Shown here piece after piece: positions 1 through 64,000 of a stretch of DNA of 64,000 nucleotides (its first letter is position 1; the number at the start of each line of letters is the position of its first letter). Position numbers and translations under genes: made by a program. The notes under the pieces were generated by a model that made no database searches, was not told where the DNA came from, and was given only the letters and a program-made list of their open reading frames with translations. The DNA is from Psammoneis japonica (taxonomy: Eukaryota), in contig QPGO01000032.1 of assembly GCA_008632985.1 (NCBI GenBank), positions 369,330-433,329 of the forward strand, written 5' to 3'.

Positions 1-3000
1 GTCATCATCTTTGCACTTGTGCTCTGAGGCACCTTGCTTCAACCTGGATTCTTTCATTCAGTTTGGTCACAAAATGATCCCAAGGTGAGCTTTGCTTGAT
101 TTTTCTTCTTTCAGGGAATTCCATCAACCACCAACAACTTGCCAATTGGAGCGAGCATGCACCGCGTGATGCCACTCCCCCAAACATCAAGCACACAAAA
201 AGACAAGTGATCCCATCAACTTCAAATGTTTCAACAGCTTCTTTGTGCAGCTCTTGACCATTTCTTTCTGTGCAAAACACACACAAGCTAACAGCACCTG
301 TGTCAGCTGGGTTCATTGAGATTGGAGAAGAGGCAAAGTGAGCTCCCCTCCAGAAGTCAGAAAGTCAGCAACAACATCGTCAATTCTGGTGCTCTTTGTG
401 AACTTTTGGGTGGAGAATGTTCTCCAAGATGAGGCCATTTTAGTTGCCTGTCCTTTGTGATCTGATTTGCCCAAGAGTTGTTGGCACTGCAATTGTGGTG
501 GTGAAGATGGGGGCAATGTCCCCCCAAAGCCATCGCAGTTCTTGTGCCCATTGGCTGGGAATCATGTGAAGACATGCCAACTTGCTTTTCTGGCTTTTGT
601 TGTTCCTGCCGGTGATCTGCTCTTGCCTGCTTTCTTTCCAGCCCCTGACTCTTTGATCCTTGCCTTCAACTTCTCAATCTCAGCAAACCTGACTTCTCTG
701 CCTTTTTGCCAAGCCAGGTGTCTCTTTTGTTCAGCGACCCGTCCAAAGACATTTGCCATCTGGCTCCACTTTTGATCTGGAAGACTTGCATCAAGCTGAG
801 CCACCTGCTGCAGGTGCAGGTGCAGTTGGGCATCCTTGTCTGAAGCGCCACTCTCCCAGCCTGTGTGCCATCATGAAACACAGTGGCTGATGCCAAGATT
901 TTGTTTGCCGGTGCTCATTCTCTGGAAAAATGTTCTGCTGGCATCCCTTTCACAGTTTGAGGAGTCTGGTGGGTGAGTCAAGAACCCCCCCCCCCTCTGG
1001 CACTCCAAGGGACAACCAAATGAAGAAAGTTGGCAGCAGTGTGTGCCTCCCGTCTCTCTGGCTCTGACTCTCATCTGGCTGTTGCCCACATGGGGGCAGT
1101 GCTGGCTTGGTGGAGGAGGGTTCCCCCATCTGCAGAGCCTGGGCATGCCCTCTGGTTCTGGTGCCTTTGTCTGTGTCCAGCCGTGTTTGCCTCACACAAA
1201 CAATGCAGGGGTGCCAGGCTGAACTTCGCATTTTTGACAACTCGCCTCCTGTTTGCGCCAGCTGCACATTTTCTGTGGTCACCCACAACATGCACCCTGT
1301 CATCCCTTTGAGCAAACCCACCACAGATCACCTTGTGGCAGCAAGTCAAGAGCTCTGGACAGTGCCAAAATGGGTTGTCATCGCCCTTCACACATGCCAT
1401 GATGCTGAAGATGGGATGTCTTGAGCAGGGAGCACTCTATCTTCCTGCACGTTCCTTGCAACGCATTGAGGGAAGACAAATTAAAATCCTGGTTGGATGC
1501 ACAATTTGTTCAAATGCTCGTCACCCTTGATTTTTGAGAGGTGTCAACACACCCCGCATTGAAAATGTCCATGCAATTGGGCATTCACACATTTGCACAG
1601 ACAAACACAATTTCAAATTGCCAAAATTTTGAACATAAATTTGTGTGTCCTTGAAAACACAATGCTGTGATTTTGACCCAAGAAAAACGAAAAACCATCC
1701 AAAAAGCACAAGACCATCACAATCCAAGAAGCAGCGACACCATGGCCTCAGGATCCGTTGTTTGCCGCAGATCCAGGAAAGCACTGTTTGATTTGCTTCA
1801 GCAAGTTCATTGCATCATTGTCATTGCTGTTGCAGCTGTTGAGTCTAATTCTTTGTGGTGTGCCTTTCATTTGTGCAGAGCAAAGGAGAGAGCACGCGAC
1901 GGTCAAGAGGCTTCTTTTTCGCGTGGCGTGGCCAACCTCGCTGTCAACAACGTTGCTGCCAACGGGAACACGGGAACCCAAGAAATGGAAGAAGGGGCAA
2001 GCACAGTTTGGTGTTGTCATTGCTGTTCCAGCTGTTGAATCTAATCATTTCGTTTTTGCGTGCTTTTCAATTGTGCAGATCAAAGAGGAGCAAGCGACAA
2101 CAGCCAAGAGGCTTCTTTGTCACTTGGCACAGTGCACCCCGATGCCAACAACGTCACCACCAGCAGGAGTGCTTGAACCCAAGAAGTGGCAGAGCCCTTC
2201 ATGGTGGGGGCAGTGAATGGATGTCAGGGTGAAGCGGACGAAGAGAACAATGTTGACGAAAGGAAGGGCGAAAAAGACGAGATGGCCACAACTCAACATG
2301 TCAACTGAAAGAAGCAGACAACAAGGTGAGCAACATCATGTGCACGCTGGCTTGGTTTTTCTTGGTGTGTGTGTCCTTTTCCAAGCATCCTCAACAGCTC
2401 TGCCTTTTGCGTTTCAGCGGAGCCGAGAGGAGACGATGCAATCAACTGCAAACAGGAACATTCGGCAAGTCGTCCTAAGAACAGCTCTCTTTTCCTTTTC
2501 TGGCAACTCACACCAACTGTTCTTCCCTCTTGCATGCACTGCCACAGAGCATCCGATGAGGTGCAAAAGAACAATGCATGCGACCACCATTCTTGCAGCC
2601 AGAACCACAATGAATCCTTTGCGAACAAGTCTCAGGATGATGGCGCGCACTGCAAGACGGAGACGCACCTCCAATGGGCCCAGCAGGGCAAGAAAACCGA
2701 GGAGACTTGACGATTGAAAGTTTGTTTTCTGCACTGAGAATCACGAGAAACTGCGTGGTGGAGTGCTGGTTTGTTCAATTGCACCCTTCAATTGACTCTC
2801 CATTGATGTCACAGTTGTCAGCGCCGCAGCATTTGAATGTGTTGCACCACAGTTGAGAATGATGCTCCACCAGAAACACATTCCAGGAATGGAGAGCACC
2901 GATTCCTGGTGTTCCAGAAATGGGCCATCCCCCAGAAGATTGGAGGAACCTTCAAACCCAGAAATGTGTGACAGCAATTTGGCATCCAGGAATGAAAACC

Positions 3001-3470
3001 AGTGATCTCCGAGAAGGACGACCCAGCAATTGACCCAGGAAAAGGTGAAAATTCCAGCAATGTGTCTAGCAAAACCCTGTTTCTCCAGTGATTCCTCCAG
3101 AAAACGCGCCATGCCACATCCAAAGTTACGCGCAATGAAGTGCGCGCAAAAAATCAAGAAACAGGAGGAAATTTGCTGGAACTTTCGCGTGCAGTGTTCC
3201 CCGGGATTGCCACCTTTTACCCTGCTTCATTGACCACTCAGTGGTTGGTGATTGCAGACTTTTTCATGTCGGTCCAGCAGTCGGGCAGTCGGGGGGTCGG
3301 GGGGTCGGGGGGTCGGGCAGTCGGGCAGTGGGGCAGTCGGGCAGTGGGGCAGTGGGGCAGTCGGGCAGTCGGGTTGTCCGTCTGAATTTGAAAGTGTGTC
3401 CCTTGGATTTTGAAAGGGTGTGGGTTGTTTAGTGCAGATGAATTCTTCGGATTCTTGGAATTGTCATTGA
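1..3470. repeat. TpA-depleted, CA/TG-rich degenerate domain (probably repeat/TE-derived); CpG partly retained
   Basis: Very few TA dinucleotides; overlapping ORFs are Tyr-free and Cys/His/Gln-rich; contains a ~196-bp tandem duplication (1835 vs 2031). Confidence 0.6.
3278..3373 (+). repeat. G-rich 8-9-mer tandem repeat (CAGTCGGG/CAGTGGGG/GTCGGGGG)
   Basis: Direct reading; multiple G3-G6 runs. Confidence 0.9.
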
Positions 3471-4229
3471 CATGAGAGGTTGTGGGGACATCCAAAAAAA
3501 TCGATAAATTCCCTACGACGGGCACGTGGCACGCTTTTTCAGGAGAGCTCGAAAGTTCTGAAAAATTGGGATTGCCGGCGTGGCATGTTCAAAAATGCAT
3601 TCAGTTATATACAAAGATAATTTATCGTGAATTCTACACGAAAAAGTCACATTGGGGAAAACATCATATCGAACAATAAGTGAGTTTGTGCGATGCGCTA
3701 TTATGGCGATAAATTGGAAAAAAAGAGTGTCCGTGCACCTCGCCACAGCCCCAAAAATGGCATGAGACATCAAATATAACGGTCATCCGCGTGACCGGTG
3801 CGGTGGCCACGCCACTCAGCCGCCACAATACCGGCCCCGGCGGTAGGGCCCTACGTACGTACAGGCAATACAGCATGCAACGGCACACATACACCCACAC
3901 CCACAAAGAAAGACAAGTGGTCAATGCTCCCCGCAGGCCTGGTTTCCGCGGGAAGGGTGAATTCCCGGGGAATAATCGCCACGAATTACCGTTCGTTATA
4001 TATATACTAAATGCATGTATAAAAAATAATACACTGGTAATTCCCCGTGCTTCCCCTCTCGTACATTTCTACGCGTTCTACGTGCCGGGACGTAGGAGCC
4101 AGACGATCGACCGACCGCAACAGCAAAAATGGGCAACACGCCATGGCGCGTTCGCATCCCATTTATGACGGCTATTGTCAATCAATCACGACACCGTTCA
4201 ATGTATTCGATGGTGTCGATTGAACGGGA

Positions 4230-6350
4230 TCTGCAGCATAAAACACAAGATAAAATGTGATTGCACATGTGCAGAACACACCAGTGCAACTGATCGTTGG
4301 GCGTCAGTTGCTTTTTTGTTGTGCAACCACAAATGCAAGCCACAAAGCGCACAGCAAAGGCCAAGGCAAAAGTAGAACCACATGTGGCCAATGACAACAA
4401 TGTGTCGGATTGAACAGTCATGCTTGTTCTTTCAATTTGCACATCTTGTGTGCAGAATGAAGGGGATCGTTTGGATCACTCTTTTGTCGTGCACTCAGAA
4501 AGGCAAGCCATGAGGCGTCCAGTGTGAAGGATGAGGCAAAACAGGAACCTCACATGGTTGAAAAAAATGTGGCAGATTGATTGACAATGTTTGTTCTTCC
4601 CTTTGACCTGTCCCATGTGCAGAACACATTGCACCATTTTTTCCTTCTTGTGTCGTGTGGTCACAAATGCAAACCACAACGGCTCTAGAGCAAAGGCTGG
4701 GGCAAAAACAGAGCCGCACATGAACAATGTTGGTGTGCACGATTCAACGGTAAAGTTTGTTCTTCCCTTGCTCTGCCACAAGGGGCCGCTTTGTGTTGAT
4801 TTGTCGATGCATCCGTCATGGTCGTCGCCCGGCCAAACAAGAAAAAGGCACACCGGCCTGACCCAAATCAAACGGGAATCACCGCAATGCACTCGTTTTT
4901 TGTTCCCCTTGCAGCATGCATGCAGACAAAAGGTTGTTTTTGTCATGCCCTTTGTAACATTTAAAGGCTGCAACACGTCGCCGTGATGCATCAACTCTTG
5001 TCAGTGGCTGCACATTGCACTCCTCCTCATGTGTCGTGCGTCCATGCGGCTCTTTGCCAACGTGTGCTGACACTGCACGGTTTTGGCAGAACAGTGTGGG
5101 TACGTGCGAAGGAACACGCAGAACTGCACAGAGTTTTGCGCGTTCGACAGTGATCAACGTTGCTGCAGACAACTCCCACTCAGGGTTTCGAACCCCTGGC
5201 CTCCTGCCTGATGGTTGCGATGAACCACTCCGCTGTGAATTCACAATGCAACATGCATGCAGACAAAAGGTTGTTTTTGTCACGCCCTTTGTGACATTTA
5301 AAGGCTGTGACATGTCGCCGTGATGCATTGACTCTTGTCAGCAGCTGTGTGTTGCACCCTCCCCGAGCCCTTTCAGTCGTTCCTTCCCGCTAAATTGCCC
5401 TCATTTCCCGGGAATTCCCCAAAAGGGAAAGGCAATTCCCCCTTGCCCTTGCCATTTTGGGGAATCCCCAAACGGGCAAAATCAAACTAAGTTGGAACTC
5501 ATGGTCTCTGAAGCACCTCCTTGTCATCTGACCTCTCTCGGCACATCGTGTGGCACAGCACACTGAAGAGTTTGGAATTTTTCACATTTCGCGCACGGCG
5601 CAGCACTGTCCCCCATTTTTTTTAAATGCCCAGGTCTCCATTGAAAGGTCATCTGATCAAAGGCACTGTTCTTCACCATGCAAATCAAAACCCCTTTGAT
5701 CAGATGACATCTCAGTTGAGATCCCGCAAAGTCGCCAGCAGCTCCAATCACCCCCTCGCAGCATGACATTGTGCACATCTGCACGCGGTTTGGCATTTTT
5801 CCTTGTGCAAAATGTCAGTTGTGAATTTTGTGACATTTTCAAATGAGGAGCATTTCTGAGAGCTTTTTGCCCCCCCCCCCCCCCCCCCCCCCACAAACAC
5901 ACGCAAGCTCCCCCAGCTCTTTTTCAGTTGTTGGGAAATTCGACGAGATGTCCTTTTGCACATTGGCCGTGACTTCAGCATTGGATTCAGTGTGGAGCTG
6001 GAGCCATGCCTCAAGGACTTGTCACCCGCAGTTCCTGCATCTCGCACTTGCTCCCTCGCATGGTTGTTTGACACTCGCCACTCACCAGAGACAATGGGGC
6101 TCGGGGTTGCCGAGACATTTCACTTGAGACAAATGTGCAGCAGCAATGAAAATGCAACGAAATGATCAGGAGGAGGTCTGGGCATGATGAACCTGCGATC
6201 ATTTGTCAAAGAACAATTCGAGAGTTTTTTTTGCGACCACTGACCCCACTGCACTTCGTCAAAAACACTGGTCGATGCTCAATGCTCGTTTCTCTCTCTC
6301 TCAAAAGCAAAATCATCGTCTGTCAAGTCATTTTGAACAGCCGATTCAGC
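4230..6350. repeat. TpA-depleted degenerate domain with internal direct repeats (~4260/4612; ~4914/5254) and a poly-C tract
   Basis: gcatgcagacaaaaggttgtttttgtca...ttaaaggctg occurs twice; TA is scarce. Confidence 0.6.
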
Positions 6351-6699
6351 CTTAAGTGTTTCGAATCATTTATGTTGCACCTTTTGGTATGACAAATAAT
6401 GTTGAAAGCACGCAAATGTTGACTTTCATTCGTACGGCTGCAAGCAGTAATTGCCCAACGAGTCATTGGTGTCTGAGAACGACAGTAGACTCACTGCCCA
6501 CTTTAAGTATGACAACCACTTCGGCCACAATAAATGTTGTGTGATCACTTATCAAACGACAATTCGGAGGTTCTTGCTTGGAGACCACTAACCCCGTTGC
6601 ATTTCGCCAAACTTCTCTCACACACAAAAAACAAAATCATCGCAAAGAGAGAACACTACTTTCGAGAAACCAAAACATTGACACTTCATTAAGAGAACA

Positions 6700-8017
6700 A
6701 TGCATTTCCTTAGCCTTGCTTTCCTCTTGGCTGCTTGCGTCATTGACGCCAGTGGATCGGTCTCTGAGGACAACAATGCCTTAGTAAGTGCTGCAAAAAC
6801 TGGAGTCATTCTCATTGAATTACACCCGTTCTCATTCGTATTCTTTGCTCGTCTATCAGGTGCAGCTTGAAGACCTACCTGAAGGCGGTCCTGATGTCGA
6901 AGAAGAACAAGGTGGTGTTGTCGTCTTGGAAGGAGACGAGCAAGAACATCGTTATTTACGACGGCGTCCGGGCGGCATAGACAATTTACCCCCAGGCGTC
7001 AGATTGGTACCGGGTACCGGGAGCAACAACACCTTAATCATGACTGTTTACGTCTGGTACTGGCTGGGGGGCAAAGATTTGTGCATCAATCCTATCGAGT
7101 GGTGCAACACTAAAGTTATCGAAAAGTTTCATTTTGCAGAATTGTACAGAGACGAACCTAATATCAGTGTGCTCTACGCAATGGTGGAAGCTGGAGCCAC
7201 CTGCTGGGCCCCGGCTAAGGCCCTTACAAGGATGAACGCCGTGGTTCATGGAAAAGCCGAACTCACCGTCAAGCAAATAGCACGCATCGGGCCAATCCCC
7301 GAAGTCAGTTTCAGATCGAGTTTAAGCACGTGTACACTGTCTGTGGCATTCGCGGGAAGTGAGTCCGAAGCTGCAGCTTTTTCTCAAGGGACAGCTGGTG
7401 CATCGGTTGAACCGAATGGAATATGCCAAAACCTCCCGCCTACTCACAGGTGGAGAAGACATCGTATGTGTACCTATGGAAGTGGAGAAGTGGAAGCTAT
7501 TGGAGAGGCTGATGCTATTAGCACCGCTTCCTCTTTCTCCAAGGCGCTTGCAGAGTCCAGAAATACTCATTTCGTAAGCGTGATATCCAAAGGCAGGAGT
7601 CTCGATTCCTTTGAAGCTGTTGTGATTGGAGGAGCGTCGAGCTTCACTGCGGTAAAAAGTAGATCAATTACTACTGCCATCACCGATGTCGTTGCCGATG
7701 CAGATAGTTACACTTGGATTCAAAACTGCATAGAGTGGTTGGTGGATTTCTGTGGTAGCCACCACTTTCCTTGGTGCGAGCCATATAAAATCCACGAGTG
7801 TTGTACAGAAGCAGAGGCAGAGGCCACTACGGCGGTCAAAGCCAACGCCGAAGCTTTTGCCAAGGCTGTTGCGAAATCATTCGGGAACCTCGAAATCTCA
7901 GTTGCATTTAATGCATTCTTGAGACGCAACGAACTTACGGGCGCTGTCGATATGGGCTTGAACATGAATTCTGGCTTTTCTGCAGGAGCCGTCACCACCT
8001 GTAAAGCTAAGATCTAG
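6700..8017 (+). CDS. Secreted uncharacterised protein, family copy A (~413 aa); exons 6700-6783, 6860-8017
   Basis: Exon 1 MHFLSLAFLLAACVIDASG signal peptide; GTAAGT..CAG intron 6784-6859 joins in frame to ORF 6788..8017; clear paralogy with the 24.3 kb and 45.3 kb copies. Confidence 0.85.
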
Positions 8018-8418
8018 AAGGAACGATGGAATGCCCTGAGCGATTAGGGTCGATGAGCTCGTCTTTTCGTTGGGTGTTGGATGATTGTTTGGAAGTGCAT
8101 AGTGCATGTTTAGTGGAGATCAGCAGCATTAGATGGATTAGATGAAAGTTACTGAAACGGTCTCATCATGAGTGACACAAGTTCAGAGGAGAAGACGGGC
8201 TGAAGCTTGTCTCGCAAATAGATAATACATAACATAGTTATCAAGCCTTTGTATGTGTTTTTCACGTACTTTGTCTTTGTTCACAGAACATTGGATCACT
8301 CGACGGGATCGCAATGAATTGCGGTGCCCGCAACAAACAGTTTCTCTTGTTCGTGCTGTACGAGCTAATCACTTAGAATCGTGAAGGAGAAGATCGGATT
8401 CGAAGGCTGTCGGCACGC

Positions 8419-8990
8419 CTTAATCATGACTGTTTACGTCTGGTACTGGCTGGGGGCGAAAGACTTGTGCATCAATCCTATCGAGTGGTGCAAAACAAAA
8501 TTTATCGAAAAGTTTCAATTTGCAGAATTGTACAGAGACGAACCTGATAACAGCATGGTCTACGCAATGGTGGAAGCTGGAGCCACCTGCTGGGCCCAGG
8601 CTAAGGCCCTCACAAGGATGAAGGCCGGAGTCAAAACGATTACTTCTGCCATCACCGATGTCGTCGGCGATGCAGATGGTTACACTTGGATTCAAAATTG
8701 CGAAGAGTGGTTGGTGGATTTCTGCGGTAGCCACCATTTCCCTTGGTGCCAGCCAATTAAGATCTGCGAGTATTGTAGAGAAGCAGAAGCCGAGGCCTAT
8801 ACCAGGGTCAGCGCCAAGGCCGAAGCTTTTCCAAGGCTGTTGCGGAATCATTCGGGAACCTCGAAGTTTCAGTTGCAATGAATGCGTACTTATCATGCAA
8901 CGAACTTACGGGCGCAATCGACATGGGCTTTGAACAAGAATTCTGGTTTTTCTGCAGGAGTCGTCACTACCTGGTAGAGCCAAGACCTAA
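8419..8990 (+). pseudogene. Family copy B: 5'-truncated, internally deleted (~420 nt), frameshifted
   Basis: Starts at IMTVYVWYW; jumps from LTRM to AGVKTITSA; -1 shift at ~8830 (gcttttcca vs gctttttcca in copy C). Confidence 0.85.
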
Positions 8991-9108
8991 AAGGAACGAT
9001 GGAATGCGTTGAGCGCACAGGGGCGATGAGCTCCTCTTTTCGAGGGTTGCTGGACGATTGTTTGTAAGTGCATGTTTAGTGGAGATCAGCAGCACAGAAT
9101 GGAGTTAT

Positions 9109-9483
9109 TGCACTCGTGCTACCGACGTCATATAGTCCTGCGCACCAAAGCCCGTTGCATGGGGCCCTAATTGCTTTTGGTTGCAAGTGTCATGTGCTTT
9201 TCAGCCTTGCTAAGTTCTCCTCTCGACTCACAATACAAGCCAAGGTAAAAGTTTGCACAAAATTCTTCTGCAAGACTGTGTGACGCAACGACGTAAAATG
9301 GCTAGCATGAGCTTTAGAGCAGAGAGACACAAGCACAAGACAATGCAGAGCAAAAGCACTTACTTTCCGCGGTGACCAGCTAAGGCGAGATCCTGTTCAG
9401 CAGCTTCTCCACGAAACAGCGAATAAATTGCGGGCCACACAAGAAATTAAAAACTTTGTTGAGAAACAGGCATGCATGCACCC
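9109..9483 (-). pseudogene. Duplicated 3' fragment of the TPR gene at 26098-27274
   Basis: Near-identical to ~26123-26490 (offset 17006 over most of its length), with an extra ggggccc insertion at ~9161. Confidence 0.9.
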
Positions 9484-53757: not shown

Positions 53758-56392
53758 ATGAGCGGAGTTGACGACTCTGGAAGAGTGAAGCGGAGGATGG
53801 ACAGCGGAATCCCTCTCTCGCTCCGAGTCGTCCCCGTACAAGCCAGAACCGTGGTCCCGACGATTCGATCCCGATATCACGAGGTATTGACGATGGGATG
53901 CCTTCTCTTCCGCCTCCTACATCAAGAAGTTATGACCCAAGCCCACAAGAAGTATCGAAAGAAGAAGACTCCACGAGACTTGCCAACGACGTTGATCAAG
54001 ACATGGTGTTGTCAACGCAAGGAGACCATCTCCCAGAAGAAGAAGATATTGAGAGCAACGAAATTGTAGATGAGAAGGCTCAACAACCCATCAAGATCGG
54101 AAATCGATTCACCCGACGAACGAAGATCATGTTCGCCGCATTGCTATTGCTGGTTGTCGCAGTTGCAGTGGTTGTTCCGGTGTTGTTAATCGGGAACGAT
54201 GATGATACTAGTGATCCTGCGCCCGCCCCGACCGATTTGCCTGGTAATACCAGCACTTTAGACCCTTCCCTCCTGGAACTGATCCTCCAGGCACCGATCC
54301 TCCAGGCACTGATCCTCCAGGAACCGCCCCGCCGACCAGTTCTCCAGGATTCGTCGTACCGAATTCAGTGACTGCCCTCGACGAAAACCTCCTCCGGCTT
54401 GCTGTAACCTCAGCAAGACTCTGCGTGGATGTCAATCAGAACAATACAGAGGAGCTTCAGCCCACGGCGGCGGTATTTACAGATGAACCTGACAAGTCAA
54501 TGGTGGTTCAGGTAGAGAATGTCTGCTTTGGCGTATTCCGTGCTACAAGTGGCACTACTAATGACTGGCTTCAAAATCTGAATCAAAGGCTAGCAAACAA
54601 TGTGTGCTCCAACTTGACGGGTGAATGCTGTACGTCTTTTGTTGGATATCGTAATGGTTACACCACGTCTTTTCAGACGGAGTTTGAGGAGGCTATGTAT
54701 CAATGCAAAGATAACTGCCCGGACTGCGAAGTTGTTTTGACGGGTACGTCATCTGTTGGTTTCTGAATTGCCTTCTCGCCCATATTTTCCTCGTACTCTT
54801 AGCGACTGTGTGATCTTGTTTCAGGAACTAGTCAAGGAGCAGCAGTTGCGCACGTGGCCGCCGTGTTCTTGGACGATCTGGACCCGGCAGTTTTAAACTT
54901 TGGACAGCCACGAACCCTTGAAGCTCCCTGCAATCCTATTAATCGCAGTCGCATGTTTCGTTTCATCAATACGATCGTCTTTGAAGACCAACTCCTATAC
55001 GATAGTGTTCCCTTTCTGGCTTCCCGTGGAAATCCAGTACACATGGGCCATCTCTTTGTGCTTGGAGAGGACATTCAAAACCTTGCGTATTTTCCTGACG
55101 GAGAGGCGCCAAACGTAGGATTTGGGGACATTGCTATAAGAAACGTTGCCGACGCTCACCTTTTGGTGCATTACTTAGCACGTCTTGAGACTCTTTGGAA
55201 CTCAAGTACACTGCCCGTGTCAATAGATGGATTTGCAATTGGAGAAAAATGCACACGCGGTAGTGAGTGCGTCGCACCTCAAATTTGTGGATTTGGTGTA
55301 TGTACAGAGGGAAACAATGGAGATCCATGTTCAACCGATGAACACTGCTTAGCCGGAGTCTGTGTCGAGGCCCAGTGTGCCGAGGAAGACACCGGGGCTA
55401 TGTCTGACACTTTTTTTGTACCGTCCATGATTACCGAGCTTGACTTTGATTTCTTGTCATTGAGCCTCCAGGCTGCTAATTTGAGCGTTGCCTTGGCGGC
55501 TGAAGACACTGAAGCTCTGCTCCCAGATGCTTCTGTTTTTCTTGACGAACCTGACGAGGCGCTCGTTATGAAGCAAAACAATACCTGCTTTGTTGTCTTT
55601 AGAGGTACCACCCCGTCTTTGGATGACTGGCGCCAAAACCTCGACCCAGGCACTGCTATGGACGTTTGTTCCACCACTGGAAAATGCTGTACCACTCGGG
55701 CCGGGTTCAGAGACGCATACGTGAACACTACTTACCGTGCCAGTCTTGAGGCCGCCGCCCGTCAGTGTGTGCAAGATTGTCCCGAGTGTGAAGTAGTATT
55801 CACAGGGCCCTCTCAAGGTGGGGCTGTTGCGCTGGTCGCAGCCATCTTTATGGATGACTTGAAGCCCAGCCTGATTACGCATGGACAGCCACCTGCGGTA
55901 GAAGCGCCCTGCGATGTGCTTGACACAAGCCGATACTATCGCTTTGTCAACACTGTCGTAAGGAACGACGATCTTAGATTCGACCCTGTTCCATTCTTGC
56001 ATGACGCCTTTGGCAATACCGATGACTTTGGGCATTTAATAATCATGGGAGAGGACCTGGAAAACGTTGCATATTATCCTGATGGCGGTGAGTATCCAGA
56101 TATCGGGTTGACAGACTTCGCCATCCAGTCCCTTCTTGAAGTGCATCTCCCCTTCAGATATAGGGACAGACTATTAAGCATTGCCGCCGAAGGGAAATTT
56201 CCGCTACAGATTGGAGGTTGGGCAATCTCTCAAAAGTGCAGCTTGGGCAGTCAATGTGTTTCGCCGAATATATGCGGAAGGGGGCAATGCACGGAGGGGG
56301 CCGTCGGCGACCCATGCGGAAACGACGAGGACTGCGTGTTTTCAAGCTGTGGTTTCTTTCGTAACGAGTGTTTCCGTAATGATGAACCCTGA
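53758..56392 (+). CDS. Membrane-anchored tandem class-3 lipase (two alpha/beta-hydrolase domains with Cys-rich linkers); intron 54744-54824; apparent frameshifts at ~53780 and ~54270
   Basis: TM FAALLLLVVAVAVVVPVLL; VFRAT..DWLQNL and VFRGT..DWRQNL; GTSQG and GPSQG elbows; DSVP/DPVP; His motifs. Confidence 0.8.
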
Positions 56393-59300
56393 AGATATCA
56401 TTTTAAACGTTGGCTTTATACTGTCCTGCTAGTAAAGCATCTTGCTAGTTTGATTCCGAGCAATCAAGCTGTTTTCCAATGCTCGCCTTCCGTTCCTTCC
56501 TTGACCTGAAACACTTTAGGTGTGGAGAGACCTGCCTACAGACACCCCACAATCACCTATGAAGTATTGCAGTCCTTTGCATCCCATCATCTCCATCACA
56601 CATTCCCTCCCGACAGCAAACAAACACCATCATCATCGTCGCTGTTGGGTTGGTGCGTCCGGTGGATCAGGACTGCCCACAATCAGATCAAAATGCTGTC
56701 AATGCTCTGGCAGTGATGAGCTTCCCCACTTGGGTGATGTTTCGTAGCAAGCGGAATAGATGGAGATGGAGTTGGCCTCCAATCCACAAAGAAAGAAGTC
56801 CCCATGTTCACATGTGAAGCTGGCAATGCTGGTGCAGTGAAAGCAAAGAACAAGGGCATTTCTTGATTCTGCCACCTGATCCTGGGCAAAAATTGCTCTG
56901 CCACTGGAAGGCTCAGCTGCTCACAGGCTGGTGGGTGCTGCTGTTGCATTTGCCAACAACACAGAGCAGTGGTGCTTGGGGGGGGGGGATCAAACAACTC
57001 TTGTGGCTGGCTGGATGCCGTGCACCTCATTGAACAGAGAACAGCATTTGTGGGACTGTCAACGGCAAGAACTCCAAGCCTGTGAAGCTTGTGCCTGTTG
57101 CCTTTGAGTTTTAACTGGCTTTGTGATTGCGTTCTTGAGGGCTGTCATTTTTCCACTCTAAAAGGGCTTGTGCAGGAGCTTGCAGGGCCACACACACAGC
57201 ATGCAGAAAAATGCGACATTGTGGAGTGCAGAATGAGCAAATTGAGCAAGTCATCAAAGACACTTGAGTGCAAGATGCCAGACAGCAAGCAGTGGTGACC
57301 AGGGACACAAACACACAGTTGAATGAGGAGGGTCATGTGGTGCAATGCTGGCAGTGCATCATGGCTCAATTTTGCTTTTTTCAGCCATGCAAATGCTCAA
57401 AGTGAGTTTTTACACAACAACCCTCATGATCAATCAAAAGTTGGGTGGGAAGTGCCAAACTCCACATCTGGTGCAGTGGCACAATGCATGGCATGACACG
57501 AAGGTGCAACAGACTGCTGCAAACAAAGAAAGTGGCCAAGGAGGCTGATCATCATAATCTGCACACAACTGTGCCAACAAAGGCTGTGCAGCTGGCTGCT
57601 GGCTTTTTTAAGCACCAAAAGTTCATCTGGCAAGCACAGACATTGTGAGAAAGAAAGCCGTGCCACCAGTTTGCACAAAAAAAAGCTTGGATTGCATCAG
57701 AAGTCATGCAGCATTGCAAACTGTCATTTCCCATGGGTGCTTCTTGAGCACAGAGGTGTGCACAGTGCAGCACAGTGCAAACAGCTGCACCAAGTTGTGG
57801 CTCTGTGTGTGACAAAGTGGCTGGTGGCTGAGGCAGTGCAACCAAGCAACAGAGCATGCAATGTGCTGGGTGCAGCAATGGCAGTGCTGCTGCTGTTCAG
57901 CCATGTGCTGCCAATTTGAGCAATGCACTGCTGGCTGCTTGAGCTTCTCTTGCATCCACCAAAGAAGCCACCAGCAAGTGCCTCATCTCATGCTTGAGTT
58001 GCCAATGTCATGCAGCCAGCTGCTCTGACTTTGACCAGCATCGCTCAGCCTTCAAAAGCAAGTTGCGAGTTTGGCTGTGATGGCACATGTGTGGTGCAAA
58101 AAGTGGCCAATGCAAGGCACTGGGGATGCAACCACCATTGCTCCAGCCAAAATGTTGAGCTTGGTGTGTTGCAAGACTTCCAGCACCTTGCTTGGTTGTC
58201 CTCCACAGACTTGATCACTCAACAGCAGCGGTTGTGCATGTGCTTGTTACAACAGACATTTGATGCACACAAAGTTGAAGAAGCAAATTCAAAAAACTTG
58301 CTTCTTTGAGCATTTGGTGGGAGAACCTGGAAGAAGAAGAACAGAAACTCTTGCAGGAGGGCATGAGAGCTCAAACATGTGGCATTGCACTCAGAACATG
58401 GAAAGAAAAATGAAAAGTGCATTGTGCACACCAAAAAAGAAGAAGAGCAAGGTCAAAGCTGCTGCTTCAAGCCCAAAAATGCCCTGCACTCCAGTGCCAA
58501 CATGGTGCTTTCAATTGACTCTCAACCTCAAGCCCCAGCAGTGCTCAAAGCAGAGCTGACAATCATGCTGTGAGGCAAAAGATGCTGGCACAAGGCTCGT
58601 GCTGGTTTGCATTGGAGATTCTGGCTGTGGACGCAAGAGAGAAAGATTGGTGCACTCAGAAACTGCCACAATTGTCAGTGGTTGTTGGACAAGGTTCCCA
58701 CACCAAAGCCATTGCTGCAAGTGTTGCAAAGCCAGAAAAGAAGACAGAAAAAACAAACTTGGCATGCAGAACAACAGAATTTGTTTGCTGTGGCAGCAGA
58801 GGCAATGGGGCATGTTTTGCAACTTGTTTTGGCGAGGTCTTGGCACCAAGGTCAGTCAGGCACCTGTGACAAGCCTGCCTGGGGGTTGGTGCAACCCCAG
58901 GTTCTGCACTTTGCTTCCAGTTTGTAAAAGTCAAAAACTTGGTGCAATGCATTGCAACAGCCCATGGGGGCTGCAAATGAGATCCAAGGATGGTCTGGTG
59001 GCACGTCAGGTGGTGACAATGTTTCAAGGTCTGGCCACATGCTGTGCAGTGTCATGGAGCTGTTCTTTGGCAATGCTCAGATTTCTTGAGGTCACAACTT
59101 AAGTTCTGTGATTTGTGACAACAAGAAGTTGGTTGCCATTTTCTCTCTTTTCTGGGCTTGTCTTGTGTGCTGAAGTGCAAGACATTTGCTTGGCAGGCAC
59201 ACAACTTGTCACATTTTGTTGCTGTCATGCAGACACAGACCCAACCATCTGCACATTTGCCAGCAGCCTGCACAGTGCAGCTGCCTCCACAGCACTCCAG

Positions 59301-61310
59301 CATGGCATCAGAGCACCAAATTGCTGGTGTCCTGCAACAGAGGAGCATCAAAGCTTTCACTGCTGCATGGCTGCAGCACCCCACTCATCATGTTGCCAGC
59401 ATGGCTGGAATTTCAACAAAGCCAGAAAATTTTGCTGAAGGCAACTGATGGCTGACTCTGTCATTGTTGTGCTGCATTTCAGGTGGTGTGTTGTGGGGCA
59501 TCACTGCTCTGGGTCCCTCCCCAGGGTTGGCAATGTTTTTGGCAGCACTTGATGCATGGCACATGCTGGGCTGCAGGGAAGTCTCTGCAAATGTGTTGAG
59601 AAAGGCACTGCCATCTTGTCTGTCATGCATGCACACACTTGTGCAGAGCAACTGACTTGTCCACATGGACGAGCAACTCATGCAAAATGAACACCTCCGT
59701 TGATGCAGCACACATCCATTCTGTGACTGCAGCTGCCCAGTTGCCACATGCACAAGCCTTCTCCAGGCTGGATTGTTGAAATTTGAGTTCAGGGTCACAA
59801 CTTCACAGACAACAGAGAGCTGTTGAAAGTCATGTCTTTCAAAAAACAATCTGTTGTGACTCATGTCTTTTGACAATGATCTGTTGTGAGCCATGTCTTT
59901 CAACAACAAAAAACACATCAAATGCCATGACAGTCACATGTGAAAAAAAAAGGGTCAACCAAATTCAAGCTGGCACTGCACAATGCTGCAAACAGCCTTG
60001 AAGTGAGAATGCATTTTTCTGCATGCCACGACAAAATGTCCAGAGAGGCAAGTGAAGTTTTGATGTGAGTGTTGAGAGCATTTTGACAAGGCCAAGTCCA
60101 GCTCTTGAGTTTTTGTGGCTGTGTGAGTCACGGGGTTTGGTGTGCCAACCTTTTTGTCTCAATGCAGCAACCCTTGTTTCCAATTGCAAGCTGTCCTGTG
60201 GGCACTTTTTTCAGAAGCTTCTTCTTGCAGAACATTGCAGAGTGCCACACTTGGAGGCCTTGGCCAGCCCTCTCATCCATGTTGCAAACTGGTTCTCATG
60301 AATTGATGTGATGAGTTTGCAAGTCAAACCAGTTTTGCTGGACTTGTGTGAGCATGGCAGCATTCTTTCTTTTGTTGCAGTGGGTGCTTGGGCTTGTTCA
60401 TCCAGCAGCAGATGCTGCAGAAATGACAAAAACAGGTGCTGCATCATGAGTGGTGTGAGTCCACTCTTCTGGCGCCAAGCCATTTTCTGCTTCTTTGTGA
60501 ACTCACATTTGCTTGCTTGCCATGTTTTCACAGGCATCAAAAACAGCCAATGGGGGCATCTCATTTGTGCAAATTTTCAAGAAGTTGAGAGATGTTGCCA
60601 AAATTGCATGAGTCCAAGCAGGCATCTTTCAGGTCAACCTGGAGCTTTTCAATCTCAGTCATTTGCAGGTTGTCATGAGACATTTGATGGCGAACTTTGG
60701 GAGGACAGGATCAGCACATCTTCTTGAGTTTGCTGGACATTTCCATCTGGGGCAGACTTCTTTTCAAAAATGACAAAATGCAGCAGAGCCCAAAACCCTG
60801 CTGGAGCCTGGAGCACATGACTGGCTGAAACTTCAGCCCCCACAAGCACTGTTCTCTCATGGGATGCAAGTGACAGCAACCAAGTTGTTGGAGGCAGGCC
60901 CCAGTTTTGTGGGGCTCATGGCACCTGCGCAGCTTCCAAAACATTTCTTGTGGGGCTGGGATGCACCTCTGTTGATGGACACTCTGCTCACATGCATTTC
61001 AGTTGCAAGGCTTCTGCACTGCAGAGAGTGAGAGTTTGTTCAAGCTCTTCATGTGCTGGAACTTGTGCCATGCATGTTGTCATGCAACAGCTCCTGTGTG
61101 GTGATGCACATTGGAAATTGGATTGACATCTTCACAACTCAACAACACAGCTCTTTTCACAGTTGATGCAACTTTCAACAGACTTTTCACAAAGGCCGCA
61201 AGCACGCACCACCAAATGCCATGCCACCCAAGCCAAAGCTCAGCACAATGATGGCAGCACACAGCACACCCCACTGAAACATCATCTGGCATCTGTTGCA
61301 GTGTTGCTCA

Positions 61311-61358
61311 CAACAACAACAACAACAGCAACAACAGCAACAACAACAACAACAACAA
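61311..61358 (+). repeat. (CAA)n microsatellite
   Basis: Direct reading. Confidence 0.95.
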
Positions 61359-63112
61359 AATTGCTCCAAAGCTGCTGAGCTGCTCCACTGCCAAAGTCCT
61401 CAACAAGAGCCAAAAGCACTGTGCCACTCTTTTGTCAAACTCAAGCCAACCAAGCAACTCTTTTGGTTGTGGCAGCACCAACAAGGTGGTGATTGCAGCA
61501 GTGTTTGACTTTTGTGCTGCTGCATGGCTGCAACTCAACCTCAAACACAACAGTGATGGCACCCCTCCCTCATGCTCAAATTCCTTGCTCTTGACTGGCA
61601 CCCAATGTGGCTTGCAACAGCTGCACCCTTCATGGAGCAACAGCAGTTTGCAAGCTTGTTGGGCACTGCAAAGTGCAAAAGATGAGCTGGCAGGATCCAC
61701 AGCCACAGCCCTCATGTTGACAGAGCTTGTGGCAAGCTTGCTGCATGTTGCCCATTTCATGGCATGAAATGCAAAAAAACGAATGTGCTGGCATGGAAGG
61801 GGTTGTGTTAATTTGTGCAGTGCTGGCAGAGCATGGGTGGCACCATCATCTGGACACTGGTGTCAGGTGTCGGAAATGATGACATCTGGTCTCTGCACTT
61901 GTTTTCACATGCTGGTGGCAGGTGATGATCATGAGCCCCTGGGCACCTTGTTGTCCCTCTGAGAATGTCTGTCCCTGAAATGAAGTGGTCAGATTCTAAA
62001 GAGGGCTGTGGCTTGCAGAAGCCTTTTTGGATGATGACAATGAGGCCATTGTTGTGTGCTCACAACATTGTCTGGTGGCCCCTCTTGCTTGGCACTTTCC
62101 AGATTGTGGGCATGCTTTGGAGTGGGAAGACACCTTTCTCAAACAAATGCTCTCCTTTTGAGGCAAGAGGAGCAATGGCCTCCATTCAGCACAAGCTCTG
62201 TGACATGTTTGCAGCCCTCTGCAGTTTGGAGCTCTGCAGCACATTTTTGCAGTGCTCAGCTTCCAAAAAACAGGCAATGGAGTCACTGGCACAAATCCCC
62301 CCTTCAACAAAGTTTCTTGTTGGTGTCCATGGAGATCTTGTGTCCCTTGAACAAAGTTTGTGGAAGCTCCTGATGTGCAAGATCTTTCCTCTGCCATTCT
62401 TTGGCACGTGCTTGTTGAGGGCTGCTTTGATGCCTGGTGTGGGGCAACCCCTGACTGTTTGGACACAGATGCTGCATGCACAGCTGTTGTTTCTTCTGGA
62501 GCTGCCAACAGCGTGTGTTGCAACATTTCATTCATCTTCTGTGCTCATGAGCAGCAAAAAGGAGCAAAAACAAGTCAAAGCTTGCTCTGAAACAACACTG
62601 AAATCTGCCTGGCAGGCCATCAATTTTGAAGCTGACTTTCAAAATGTGTGGATCATCCAGAGCATTTGAGCTTGGATTGTGCATCACCACATTGAAGGTC
62701 AGAATTTTGGCTGCCTCTTGCTGTGCCCAACCTCGCGCACAATTTTTGGATGGAGAGCTGTGTCTTTTGCACTCTTGCAAATGGCAAGCAAGACAAACCA
62801 GCTGTGCTGTGGGCTGCAGCAGTTGTCAAACAAAGGCCGCTGCATTTTCAAAGAAATGGAGTGCAAAAAGGATGGCAAGGAAGGGAGAGGAGAAGGCACT
62901 CAAAGAAAATCATTCAAAGGAGATCTCCTGCAATAGAGCAGGCTTGCCATGTGTTGGAAAACCAAGTTGCTGGAGAGGCTGCAAAGCAACAGATTTCAGC
63001 ACCTGTGAAAATTGTTCTGCATCACATGGGGAACATTTCATGATGATGATGACGTCACATTTGACAATGACAGTTAGTTGATGATGGCAGCAGGTTCTCT
63101 GGGATGCTTTAA

Positions 63113-63628
63113 GGCTGGATCGATGTTTAGCGGCATTTTTTTAAATAGCTCGTGATTTTATAATTTTCTCGTACTTCGCCCGTGTTATTTTGCGATGCCT
63201 CTGAGCACCCCCAAACACTTATGATATGTGTGTGTCTAGCCCCCATCAGGGCTGTTAGACCTTTATATGAACTACACTTATCAACCTTCAAACGCCAATT
63301 ATCGAATTGGGTGCGGTTGTTATATTCGACAAACCGCTGTTTTTCGCCAAAATCGGACTATTAATGGTAGATAAGCCGTAACTTTCCAGGAAAGGCCGAT
63401 AATTGGCGTTTGACTGGCTATAGACATATCTACGGTCGTTATTCTAGAGATCCCGAACCTTGATATTCATTGTCAATGCATTCTATGATGTCTTACAAAC
63501 GGACAAAGTTCGACCTGTCGCTGAATTTTTTTTTGGCGAACGCGCGCATTAATAGTACGAAAAATCCGGGTTATTTTTAAACATTTACGAGCTCTAAATA
63601 AAATCGACCGCTAAACATCGATCCATCC
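63113..63628. mobile_element. Non-autonomous DNA transposon (MITE), 516 bp, with 21-bp TIRs and TTAA on both flanks
   Basis: GGCTGGATCGATGTTTAGCGG (63113-63133) vs CCGCTAAACATCGATCCATCC (63608-63628), 1 mismatch; TTAA at 63109-63112 and 63629-63632; weaker subterminal inverted similarity. Confidence 0.85.
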
Positions 63629-64000
63629 TTAACATCACAAGTTGGGAGACAGACATGAGCTTGGTTCTTCTGCAGTGTGTTTTGTTCTTGGGGTTCAAAA
63701 GTGACCCAGAGCTTGTCAAACCCAGCTTTGGCTTTCAAGCCCATGCAAAGCACCACAGCAAAATGACCCTGCAGAAGATCAAAATCTTTGTTGACTTCTC
63801 ATTGCTTGCTGGCAGTCCACTTCTGTTGTGCACAACTTCTGGTGGACATTTTTGAATGCACAAAAGCCAGGGCATTGAAAGCAAGTGCCTGTGCAATGCA
63901 CACACATCCCAATCCTGCAACTCCAAATGCCAAAGAGAAGTTCTCGATGCTCTTTGAAAATGAACGGATGAGCAGATTCCAGATCTGGGCCAATGAGAAC

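Follow-up and report, generated by a model that had tools for sequence, protein, structure and literature searches.

How does a stretch of diatom nuclear DNA come to be divided between intact genes and intervals almost emptied of TpA, and does the loss of TpA and CpG record how long these intervals have been silent, or only how far the silent state extends? The window in question, the whole 64,000 bp that we analysed, had been predicted to have a sharp two-compartment architecture with roughly half of its length depleted in TpA, and a dinucleotide scan by sliding windows and a two-state HMM, with frequencies given as observed/expected (o/e), agrees closely with this.

Compartments of the window

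The HMM delimits six TpA-depleted blocks (1-3504, 4252-6352, 9449-24053, 35784-38082, 56566-63074 and 63631-64000) that together make up 29,388 of the 64,000 bp, or 45.9% of the window. TpA o/e is 0.03-0.07 in the blocks versus 0.59-0.64 in the gene islands, such that the blocks hold 75 TpA, compared with ~1,211 if they had the gene-island rate; the longest run free of TA spans 2,709 bp (59100-61809, in block 56566-63074). The block edges are sharp to ~20-50 bp, and the closest long ORFs are 174-436 bp away, in keeping with the expectation that the edges would fall within a few hundred bp of intact genes.

CpG subdivides the blocks. It is kept, at an o/e of ~0.6 (37-40 per kb versus 53 per kb in the islands, where CpG o/e is ~0.95), in 1895-3504, 4252-6352 and 9449-10426, which we refer to as TA-only DNA, and it is lost (o/e 0.08-0.22) in 1-1894, 10427-24045, 35811-37889, 56661-63120 and 63620-64000. 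The original prediction had drawn this same distinction between domains that keep CpG and domains that have lost both steps, although it overlooked those at 1-1.9 kb and 35.8-38.1 kb, and the block that it placed at 1.9-3.2 kb extends to 3504. The features of the window are as follows.

1..3504, TpA-depleted block with 12 TA (TA o/e 0.05); 1-1894 is also CpG-lost and 1895-3504 is TA-only
1816-2194, 201-bp tandem pair within block 1..3504
3505..4251, unmutated 747-bp islet flanked by TA-only blocks (TA o/e 0.89, CG o/e 1.30)
4252..6352, TA-only block (TA o/e 0.07, CG o/e 0.61) with an internal pair at 4910-5026 / 5247-5362
6353..9448, gene island with an unnamed ~400-aa gene-family copy; its last 340 bp (9109-9448) belong to a before/after pair
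9109..9478, plus strand, partly converted edge copy of a duplication whose intact paralog lies at 26123..26484
9449..10426, TA-only rim of the largest block, with 2 TA and 38.9 CG per kb
10427..24053, core low in both TpA and CpG (TA 2.5 per kb, CG 7.1 per kb)
Within 10427..24053, repeats: 2 x 400-bp (10520-11313), 189-bp tandem array (11437-15523), 191-bp array (19410-20628)
24054..35783, gene island with a gene-family copy, an ABCG-type transporter with introns and an Rce1-like protease
26123..26484, plus strand, intact paralog of 9109-9478 within a gene island
35784..38082, block low in both TpA and CpG, occupying all of the space between two RNA-derived contigs
37890-38082, CpG-dense TA-only rim, with 17 CG in 193 bp (88 CG per kb) and no TA
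38083..56565, gene island with 2OG-Fe(II) oxygenase-like, Mem_trans, HAT1-like, ERG24 and class 3 lipase genes
56566..63074, block low in both TpA and CpG (TA o/e 0.03, CG o/e 0.10); its first 95 bp (56566-56660) form a TA-only rim
63109..63632, MITE-like insertion of 524 bp, unmutated, bounded by 25-nt terminal inverted repeats that each carry TTAA at the outer end; no TA-only rim
63631..64000, TpA- and CpG-depleted block resuming past the insertion (HMM)

The two depletions do not strictly co-vary. When the sequence is cut into 128 windows of 500 bp, both TA and CG are low in 45 and kept in 70, TA is low with CG kept in 11, and the two that keep TA with low CG are one CTAG-rich low-complexity stretch and one edge window. 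All five real CpG-depleted cores are nested within TpA-depleted blocks, and 4.7 kb is TA-only. Taken as a whole, the window is probably best explained as gene islands alternating with a compartment of diatom nuclear DNA whose chromatin would be silent.

The idea that these domains correspond to repeats fared unevenly: tandem arrays do lie in the blocks, but no transposon protein domain was found there, and the Pfam cut-off was reached by none of the 167 ORFs scanned from blocks and islets (181 ORFs found). For the islet at 3505..4251, terminal inverted repeats were not found, its three ORFs have no Pfam match, and Rfam and tRNA searches were blank. A foreign origin of the blocks, whether transposon or viral, thus lacks protein-domain support, and only the tandem arrays and a pile-up of contigs from run X1 at 22-24 kb indicate repeats.

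In-place transitions and their sequence rule

The density of pyrimidine-purine steps (TA+CG+CA+TG) agrees within 1% across the compartments (gene islands 241.1 per kb, TA-only DNA 239.5, both-depleted DNA 241.3). Relative to the islands, TA-only DNA has lost 52.0 TA+CG per kb and gained 50.3 CA+TG, and both-depleted DNA has lost 84.9 and gained 85.2; CG itself falls from 53.2 per kb in gene islands to 7.2 per kb in both-depleted DNA with a matching gain of CA+TG. Because the density of these steps is equal across compartments, the lost TA and CG became CA and TG by in-place transitions, an argument that, like the one from sequence context below, presupposes ancestral DNA resembling the gene islands. 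The predicted convergence on CA/TG is accordingly seen both in this balance and in a CA/TG o/e of 1.6 in the CpG-kept blocks and 1.8-2.0 in the CpG-lost ones.

Comparisons between copies, several of them with small counts, capture the changes at individual sites. The edge copy at 9109-9478 differs from its paralog at 26123-26484 by eight TA converted to CA/TG, with two differences reversed and 12 TA common to both; the direction count of 8 versus 2 alone gives p=0.11, and in the same pair TA was converted at 8 of 20 sites versus none of 15 changed for CG (Fisher p=0.006). Double differences in which CA in one copy faces TG in the other correspond to one site struck on opposite strands in the two copies, and 30 of these occur in 1,554 columns of eight depleted pairs versus one in the 2,455 columns that three gene-island pairs provide (p=7e-12). 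Three such doubles and one transversion constitute the differences of a 98%-identical array pair, and five doubles are found in the pair 4910-5026 / 5247-5362 of a TA-only block. CpG also decays in place, as seen in six CG<>CA/TG differences in the pair 1816-1993 / 2012-2194 and at 22031, 23889 and 23924, where the window carries CA or TG and other copies among the X1 contigs carry CG. In duplicates within TA-only DNA, TpA is fully converted and CpG loss is partial (2/8 and 6/18 site-copies).

These observations weigh heavily against the reading that no mutation took place, and that the blocks reflect a native avoidance of TA and CG (in foreign or satellite DNA, or through selection) or an artefact of sequencing modified bases. 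The step density equal to within 1%, the directional change of TA to CA/TG in the paralog pair at the block edge, and the near restriction of CA<>TG doubles to depleted pairs are all difficult to accommodate on this reading, even though no recognisable transposon or viral protein occurs in the blocks and the satellite that makes up much of 11.4-15.5 kb has most of its CA/TG states in common between copies. With regard to an artefact, the read-derived contigs of run X1 reproduce the depleted sequence, with no other letters over 785 bp and one over 675 bp, which argues against an artefact of assembly. Read-derived unitigs of up to 5,966 bp, at a depth of ~62, agree letter for letter with both compartments of the window, an outcome that noisy reads or systematic miscalls would not produce; as X1 may be the read set behind the window assembly, these matches exclude error in assembly or polishing and not error within the reads. 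On balance we consider an absence of mutation highly improbable.

The surviving TpA steps reveal the context of the process. Relative to gene-island expectation, RTAY retains 1 of ~341, the one-sided contexts RTAR and YTAY retain 24 of ~650, and YTAR retains 50 of ~217. The products agree: the gain in TA-only DNA is 9.7 per kb for YTGY but 2.5 per kb for RTGR, and all four informative one-sided sites in the edge pair obey TAY -> TGY. The rule of TpA erasure is A -> G at 5'-TAY-3', equivalent to T -> C at RTA on the opposite strand, and the surviving contexts and YTGY products both uphold the TAY process as originally proposed.

This equivalence leaves a mirror-image chemistry to be weighed, in which a TET/JBP-type enzyme would oxidise the T of RTA to 5-hydroxymethyl- or 5-formyl-uracil, and mispairing of that base with G would give T -> C within the same architecture. 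Being one event viewed on opposite strands, the two are indistinguishable by sequence, and the enrichment of 5-hydroxymethyluracil at TpA and TpC steps in the DNA of dinoflagellates speaks for a modified thymine. The one study with measured mutations, discussed below, instead puts forward a putative ADAT2-like adenine deaminase, and we regard thymine modification as improbable.

Rims, cores and the question of age

TpA depletion extends as far as or beyond CpG depletion at 7/7 gene-facing edges (HMM). The excess is 8, 27, 95 and 193 bp at four of these edges, the first two values (2/7) falling within the resolution of the method, and 978, 1610 and 2101 bp at the other three. At the two edges made by the unmutated insertion, TpA depletion stops short of CpG depletion. 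Wherever TA-only DNA occurs, it forms the rim of a block on the side facing genes.

Agreement of the shared edges within 8-193 bp, and the fact that both losses end as TG/CA, might suggest a single dual-specificity deaminase acting on A and C in DNA (TA -> TG and CG -> TG) without cytosine methylation, and ADAT2 of amphioxus and Trypanosoma is reported to be active on both bases (cited in bioRxiv 10.64898/2026.01.13.699255). Such an enzyme would, however, have to spare CG in 4.7 kb and in rims that lack TA, and to convert 8/20 TA with 0/15 CG in the edge copy. Its target base would have T as 5' neighbour for one reaction and G as 3' neighbour for the other, for which no single context rule suffices, and the hypermutation reported from Bigelowiella natans is restricted to TpA. 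We therefore think one enzyme very unlikely.

A more serious contender is pure staged decay, in which both processes act on all silent DNA, TA-only DNA is younger and the CpG level dates a block. The nesting of the depletions and the absence of a true class with low CG and kept TA would follow naturally, CpG is already about one third lower in TA-only blocks and is decaying between internal duplicates, and the abrupt steps from TA-only to both-depleted DNA at 1894/1895 and 10426/10427 fit blocks of unlike age. TA-only DNA has a slightly higher density of residual TpA (18 in 4,689 bp versus 57 in 24,699 bp in both-depleted DNA, p=0.046), and residual TA and CG show a weak correlation (Spearman 0.30, p=0.024); both results lean towards an axis of age. 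Against this, TA-only DNA occupies the gene-facing side at 7/7 gene-facing edges and 0/2 insertion edges. The surviving TA classes are moreover alike in both kinds of block, with 6/18 residual TpA in TA-only and 19/57 in both-depleted DNA lying outside the resistant YTAR context (hand count). Per-copy CpG loss at ~4% non-target divergence is 0/30 in the edge/island pair, 2/8 in a TA-only pair and at least 3/6 in a core pair, and these different losses at like divergence, small as the counts are, hint at different rates.

The rim at 37890-38082 is also informative. Contigs of set X2 carry CT..AC introns at 9/9 listed joints and are of RNA origin on this basis; they cover 33863-35778 and 38084-39831 and end 6 and 2 bp from HMM edges, contig ends being at most a weak hint of transcript ends. 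The CpG-dense rim ends at the start of the second contig, just upstream of a transcribed gene, and its 88 CG per kb exceeds the gene-island level. It looks like old DNA that would have stayed unmethylated and not like newly silenced DNA, which again fits poorly with staged decay. A difference in footprint or rate fits the TA-only state no worse than one in age, and we judge pure staged decay to be unlikely, if by some way the most credible of these alternatives.

The notion of two mutational clocks consequently survives in part. The processes are separable and nested and TpA saturates before CpG, but TA-only DNA is not shown to be younger and is found only as gene-facing rim. The use of TpA as a dating clock does not survive: TpA is saturated in both TA-only and both-depleted DNA, with the same classes of surviving context in each, and is therefore without dating resolution. 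The silenced compartment is mappable from sequence alone; clean dating is not possible.

Known systems and a proposed mechanism

RIP changes CpA to TpA, raises AT content, is triggered by duplication and mutates both copies. The window resembles it in the context-specific transition hypermutation of non-genic or repeated DNA and in sharp, dinucleotide-skewed compartments beside intact genes. We reject the direction of RIP, as it is opposite here (TA o/e 0.03-0.07, CA/TG o/e 1.6-2.0), and likewise its trigger, as no excess of differences at TA sites is seen in the gene-island pairs (80%, 84% and 87% identity) and, in a 91%-identical pair, the converted copy is only the one at the block edge. 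Gene-island duplicates (80-91% identity) are untouched and only the edge copy was struck, thus duplication is not the trigger. RIP itself is described from Neurospora and other ascomycetes (PMC7296669).

The process in the window would share with TadA/ADAT2-3 and ADAR an A -> I change read as G with T or U directly 5' of the target A, unlike them requiring chromosomal DNA as substrate over whole domains that include satellite arrays. ADAR prefers a 3' G and the target in the tRNA anticodon loop is U-A-C, to which the +1 pyrimidine here is closer. ADAR-type editing of double-stranded RNA fixed via retrotransposition is rejected, as contiguous domains are erased, among them satellite arrays, a duplicated gene flank and a promoter-side rim, and as the preferred 3' neighbour is a pyrimidine. 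The native substrates are tRNA position 34 for TadA/ADAT2-3 and double-stranded RNA for ADAR (discussed in bioRxiv 10.64898/2026.01.13.699255).

The inner CpG loss resembles the decay of methylated transposons, in that non-genic DNA exchanges CpG for TpG/CpA and genes retain a CpG o/e of ~0.95, with methylation presumed in our case; it differs in lying within a wider TpA-erased domain. A CpG o/e of 0.08-0.16, as here, is far below the usual outcome of ordinary CpG decay. In diatoms, DNMT5-dependent CG methylation is reported to be limited to transposons, and 5mC to co-localise with H3K9me3 and H3K27me3 (PMC9998398, PMC12344493).

The closest precedent is one 2026 preprint on the chlorarachniophyte B. 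natans (Mettrop et al., bioRxiv 10.64898/2026.01.13.699255), which reports local hypermutation restricted to TpA in integrated giant-virus and virophage DNA. There, 230/231 hypermutations were A -> G or T -> C, all of these at TpA per the authors, the mutations fell in delimited regions, one of them silent in transcription, and the regional mutation rate was up ~1000-fold in a process active in only some lines. Both systems share the change at TpA giving TpG/CpA, delimited regions beside normal genome and long-term TpA depletion with CpA+TpG enrichment, and in both single-copy DNA can be affected, so the process is not triggered by duplication. They differ in degree and setting. TA o/e is 0.03-0.07 in our diatom compared with a Rho of 0.45 in the B. 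natans NCLDV region, and 46% of the window is affected, satellite arrays included, without recognisable viral or transposon genes. The pyrimidine preference at +1 is absent from the main text of the preprint, which likewise does not mention CpG, whereas here a core of CpG loss is nested within. Finally, B. natans offers measured mutations, and our process is known from its signature.

We consider it likely that two independent, context-specific transition processes act in place in silent DNA, and that they differ in rate and footprint and are not clean clocks. The first, A -> G at TAY, has removed ~94% of TpA and fills each putatively silent interval up to the neighbouring transcription units, probably through enzymatic deamination of adenine in DNA, by analogy with the mutation-accumulation lines of B. 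natans. The second, CpG -> TpG/CpA, is slower or less complete and confined to a core within TpA-erased blocks, and probably stems from deamination of 5-methylcytosine, the mark of transposons in diatoms. TA-only DNA would then be the gene-facing rim of the silent compartment, in which CpG decay is weak or absent. The data show in which direction and context the bases changed, that they did so in place, and how the depletions nest and where they sharply end; which enzymes act, and that the DNA is methylated and its chromatin silent, we infer.

More tentatively, and with somewhat less than an even chance of being right, we suggest that diatoms have a chromatin-guided 5'-TAY-3' DNA mutator that rewrites all silent intervals base-for-base as far as the flanking transcription units end, independently of cytosine methylation and over a wider reach. 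If so, the map of TA erasure would preserve a fossil trace of heterochromatin, with the TA-only rims representing silent chromatin without 5mC; together with Bigelowiella, TpA editing would be an old, SAR-wide genome defence, opposite in sense to fungal RIP. The unmutated insertion at 63109..63632, set in a fully erased block, indicates either that it inserted very recently or that the process is episodic and not continuous. This MITE-like element is the only clear mobile element in the window.

Segmentation of TpA and CpG depletion

Segmentation of the window with 1-kb sliding windows and a two-state HMM over TA and CG positions resolves six blocks of TpA-depleted DNA that together make up 29,388 of the 64,000 bp (45.9%), and bears out the original prediction of two compartments with TpA depletion over about half of the sequence. 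The observed/expected ratio (o/e) of TA is 0.03-0.07 in the blocks versus 0.59-0.64 in the TA-normal parts, here termed gene islands; 75 TpA are present in the blocks where 1,211 are expected from the gene-island rate, and the longest run without TA extends over 2,709 bp (chance probability ~1e-48).

TpA-depleted blocks (HMM)
1-3504
4252-6352
9449-24053
35784-38082
56566-63074
63631-64000

CpG-depleted segments (HMM)
1-1894
10427-24045
35811-37889
56661-63120
63620-64000

All real CpG-depleted segments are nested within the TpA-depleted blocks and form cores depleted of both dinucleotides, while CpG is kept at ~0.6 o/e in the TA-only stretches 1895-3504, 4252-6352 and 9449-10426, which sum to 4,689 bp. 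Among 128 windows of 500 bp, both dinucleotides are low in 45 and kept in 70, and 11 have low TA with CG kept; the distinction drawn earlier between TpA-depleted domains that keep or lack CpG thus holds, and the accompanying list of domains was right in its description but overlooked 1-1.9 kb and 35.8-38.1 kb. The remaining two windows, with TA kept and CG low, are one edge window and a CTAG stretch. The latter (48578-49187) is a 610-bp CTAG/TAG-rich low-complexity sequence with many short inverted repeats, scored as CpG-depleted by the HMM and located in the spacer upstream of ERG24; with a TA o/e of 1.7 and a CG o/e of 0.17, its composition is the reverse of that of the erased blocks, and the TpA process has left it alone.

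The window is eukaryotic, and its TA-normal parts carry long ORFs with recognisable protein families, namely ERG4/ERG24 (E=9e-123), ABC transporter, Rce1-like, Hat1_N, Mem_trans, class 3 lipase and 2OG-Fe(II) oxygenase. The ERG24 fragment has 77% identity to its top unnamed matches, and its top named matches are diatoms (Odontella aurita 76%, Stephanodiscus 72%, Cyclostephanos 70%). A gene family of ~400 aa is present in three copies (6584-8126, 24183-25719 and 45258-46684) with fragments at 8415-9110; the copies are 66-80% identical in DNA, multi-copy yet all unmutated. The family matches no Pfam family, and a 384-aa protein from it gave no usable ESM Atlas match. No tRNA gene or Rfam family was found anywhere in the window, and RNA genes therefore do not account for its unmutated islets.

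Conversion in place and the TAY context

Transitions leave the purine/pyrimidine sequence of DNA unchanged. If TA and CG are converted only to CA or TG, the density of pyrimidine-purine steps must therefore stay constant, and this constancy is what we observe.

Pyrimidine-purine steps by compartment (per kb)
Gene islands: TA+CG+CA+TG 241.1
TA-only DNA: TA+CG+CA+TG 239.5; TA+CG lost 52.0; CA+TG gained 50.3
Both-depleted DNA: TA+CG+CA+TG 241.3; TA+CG lost 84.9; CA+TG gained 85.2

A pair of repeat copies provides a before/after comparison.

9109-9478 (+), copy at a block edge
26123-26484 (+), intact paralog within a gene island

The two are 91% identical. Eight TA of the intact paralog are CA/TG in the edge copy, two differences run in reverse and 12 TA are common to both, while none of the 15 CG differs (TA versus CG, Fisher p=0.006); past 9478, a transition-tolerant alignment of the pair yielded spurious matches only. 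Eight repeat pairs in depleted DNA contain 30 CA<>TG double sites in 1,554 aligned columns, compared with one in the 2,455 columns from three gene-island pairs (p=7e-12). Such a site is what results when the two copies of one ancestral TA or CG are hit independently, each on a different strand. The constant step density, the before/after pair and the CA<>TG doubles lead us to reject a native composition for the blocks, and on this sequence evidence the depletion arose by mutation in place. The differences between two 98%-identical array units consist of three CA<>TG doubles and one transversion, from which it follows that conversion was completed while almost nothing else changed; we infer hypermutation rather than slow drift.

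A sequencing artefact was also considered and rejected, since read-derived contigs of sequencing run X1 reproduce the window sequence in erased and intact compartments alike, at a depth of ~62. They carry no other letter in 785 bp (23014-23798) and one in 675 bp (35971-36645) of depleted DNA, and none in 5,966 bp of gene island. This agreement, in a run that is possibly the read set behind the window assembly and not an independent sample, excludes errors of assembly or polishing, and contigs of this kind would not come from noisy reads. At 36245 the X1 contig has G where the window has A, and isolated N letters occur at 35986 and 36843, all inside an erased block.

The TpA that survive in the blocks are a non-random sample of contexts (R, purine; Y, pyrimidine).

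Surviving TpA in the blocks by context (expected from gene islands)
RTAY (TAY on both strands): 1 left, ~341 expected, survival 0.3%
RTAR/YTAY (TAY on one strand): 24 left, ~650 expected, survival 3.7%
YTAR (TAY on neither strand): 50 left, ~217 expected, survival 23%

The products agree with these contexts: TA-only DNA has gained 9.7 YTGY per kb versus 2.5 RTGR per kb, and ~2.2 per kb of this RTGR gain is what CpG loss alone should give. In the before/after pair, four of four informative one-sided sites fit TAY -> TGY (equivalently, RTA -> RCA). The TAY process named in the original prediction is borne out on all three counts, and the event is A -> G at 5'-TAY-3', or equally T -> C at RTA on the opposite strand, the attacked base (A or T) not being distinguishable from sequence. 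TGY and RCA are about equal in frequency, with hits shared about evenly between the two strands. Comparing TGY with RCA, a runs test gave no sign of processive one-strand tracts in the eight depleted segments: z lies between -1.3 and +1.1 in six of them, the exceptions being a z of -2.6 for segment 9449-10426 and of +4.5 for the array, whose pattern is periodic.

Block edges, rims and the loss of CpG

The edges of the blocks are as sharp as TA-site spacing allows. Around 35784, TA occurs at -25, -20, -5 and -1 and next only at +523, and at 38082 the last TA lies at -216 and the subsequent ones at +1, +48 and +57. The nearest long ORFs are 174-436 bp away from block edges, in line with the expectation of intact genes within a few hundred bp. 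At nine of nine listed joints on 26281-31869, contigs of run X2, recorded as 'DNA?', leave out 76-106 bp bounded by CT..AC; these joints correspond to GT..AG introns of minus-strand genes, and the X2 contigs are therefore RNA-derived. Two of them, 33863-35778 and 38084-39831, stop short of the HMM edges of block 35784-38082 by 6 and 2 bp, a weak hint at most, resting on contig ends, that this block fills the gap between two transcription units. Mean X2 word depth is 0-0.09 in bins of 22001-24668 and 36008-38008, a lack of cover that is not evidence of silence, and short intergenic spacers in the gene islands are not erased, so lack of transcription would be insufficient by itself. Direct repeats of ~79% identity (35582-35811 and 38214-38439) flank the same block, and the RNA-derived contigs on either side extend over them.

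At seven of seven gene-facing edges, TpA depletion reaches at least as far as CpG depletion (HMM), with offsets of 8, 27, 95 and 193 bp at four edges, the first two being within the resolution of the method, and of 978, 1610 and 2101 bp at the other three. Such TA-only margins, or rims, are missing from the two edges made by an unmutated insertion. The rim at 37890-38082 contains 17 CG in 193 bp, which is denser than the gene islands, has no TA for 216 bp and stops at the start of an RNA-derived contig; it resembles old, unmethylated DNA on the promoter side that the TpA process reached all the same.

CpG in the cores falls from 53.2 to 7.2 per kb with a matching gain of CA+TG. Six CG<>CA/TG differences separate the repeat pair 1816-1993 / 2012-2194, and at 22031, 23889 and 23924 the window has CA or TG where most other copies among the X1 contigs have CG. 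Surviving CpG are spread far more evenly over sequence contexts than surviving TpA. Deamination of 5mC would be the natural reading of this loss, given these differences between copies, a TpA process that ran without a CpG component in Bigelowiella natans, according to a preprint (bioRxiv 10.64898/2026.01.13.699255), and diatom CG methylation reported (PMC12344493, PMC9998398) to be restricted to transposons together with H3K9me3 and H3K27me3.

The prediction that TpA goes first and CpG later is correct as kinetics, as TpA saturates before CpG. Read purely as age, it would make TA-only DNA younger silenced DNA than the cores, in keeping with the strict nesting of the two depletions, the abrupt steps at 1894/1895 and 10426/10427 and a CpG content of TA-only DNA that is already down by about a third, its internal duplicates having lost 2/8 and 6/18 site-copies. 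Residual TA is also slightly denser in TA-only DNA (p=0.046) and correlates weakly with residual CG (Spearman 0.30, p=0.024). Against this, TA-only DNA is always gene-facing and absent at both insertion edges, a CpG-dense TA-free rim lies beside an RNA-derived contig, and TpA is saturated in both classes with an equal mix of surviving contexts (non-YTAR 6/18 versus 19/57 by hand count). Per-copy CpG loss, moreover, is 0/30 in the edge/island pair, 2/8 in a TA-only pair and at least 3/6 in a core pair, all at ~4% non-target divergence, a contrast in small numbers that hints at different rates, not ages. We therefore rank pure age staging below a footprint-or-rate reading, with CpG decay weak close to active genes. 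Most CA/TG states in tandem-array columns are common to all copies, and the array does not give the order of TA versus CG loss. Of the two separate clocks that had been proposed, the mapping of a silent compartment by its sharp edges stands, and dating is of limited use because TpA saturates too fast to serve for dating at all and the CpG level is confounded by the reach of methylation. Overall, we regard the observation as confirmed and its interpretation as partly supported.

Known systems and the contents of the blocks

The nearest known system is the TpA hypermutation of Bigelowiella natans, for which the preprint proposes an ADAT2-like deaminase as a candidate only. As far as its main text goes, the window differs in lineage and in completeness of erasure; the +1 pyrimidine rule and the nested CpG core are absent from that text, and edges adjoining transcribed DNA are an addition here (bioRxiv 10.64898/2026.01.13.699255). 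RIP (repeat-induced point mutation) was rejected: its chemistry runs in the opposite direction, its defining features are not found, and gene-island duplicates of 80-91% identity are untouched, which argues that duplication is not the trigger. The literature searched gave no description of a targeted A:T -> G:C mutator in diatoms, and such a mutator is so far known from one 2026 preprint on an unrelated alga (bioRxiv 10.64898/2026.01.13.699255). The window contributes, beyond this, the mass balance, a TAY rule whose products are asymmetric, TA-only rims on the gene-facing side and block edges that match RNA-derived contigs. If true, a large part of a diatom genome would have been rewritten by such a mutator, a second type of eukaryotic genome-defence hypermutation with chemistry opposite to RIP, and repeat annotation, transposon dating and composition-based gene finding would be biased in such genomes. 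With edges this sharp, the silent compartment can be read off the sequence alone; the TAY rule narrows down which enzyme to look for, and the TA-only rims allow the mutator's dependence on cytosine methylation to be tested directly.

Local repeats, including 189-bp and 191-bp tandem arrays, account for ~6 kb of the blocks. None of 167 ORFs scanned from blocks and islets reaches a curated Pfam cut-off (167 of the 181 stop-free frames with 80 aa or more, omitting 14 from the tandem array), and this window by itself gives no ground for calling the blocks transposon relics. A PRC2_EED_ins match (E=6e-6, 26.8 bits versus a cut-off of 27) is spurious, as it sits on an asparagine run, and Colicin_V and DUF483 matches are weak and under their cut-offs. 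Summed X1 word depth, which is not a copy number, is 155-888 at 22001-24001 versus ~62 on gene islands and suggests a multi-copy family.

Unmutated islets and a microsatellite
63109-63632, 524-bp MITE-like element inserted within a fully erased block
3505-4251, 747-bp islet between two TA-only blocks
3277-3373, (GCAGTCGG)n microsatellite of 12 units in a TA-only block

The MITE-like element has 25-nt terminal inverted repeats (96% complementary), a TA o/e of ~0.9 and a CG o/e above 1.4; the TTAA at each outer end would fit a piggyBac-like target-site duplication. Either the element is very young or the mutation process is episodic; in Bigelowiella, mutation occurred in some lines only, according to the preprint (bioRxiv 10.64898/2026.01.13.699255). 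The islet (TA o/e 0.89, CG o/e 1.30) is without inverted termini and has no Pfam, Rfam or tRNA match, and may represent either a recent insertion or an element that is protected; GATAAA occurs at both of its junctions, possibly by chance. The microsatellite has kept its CpGs.
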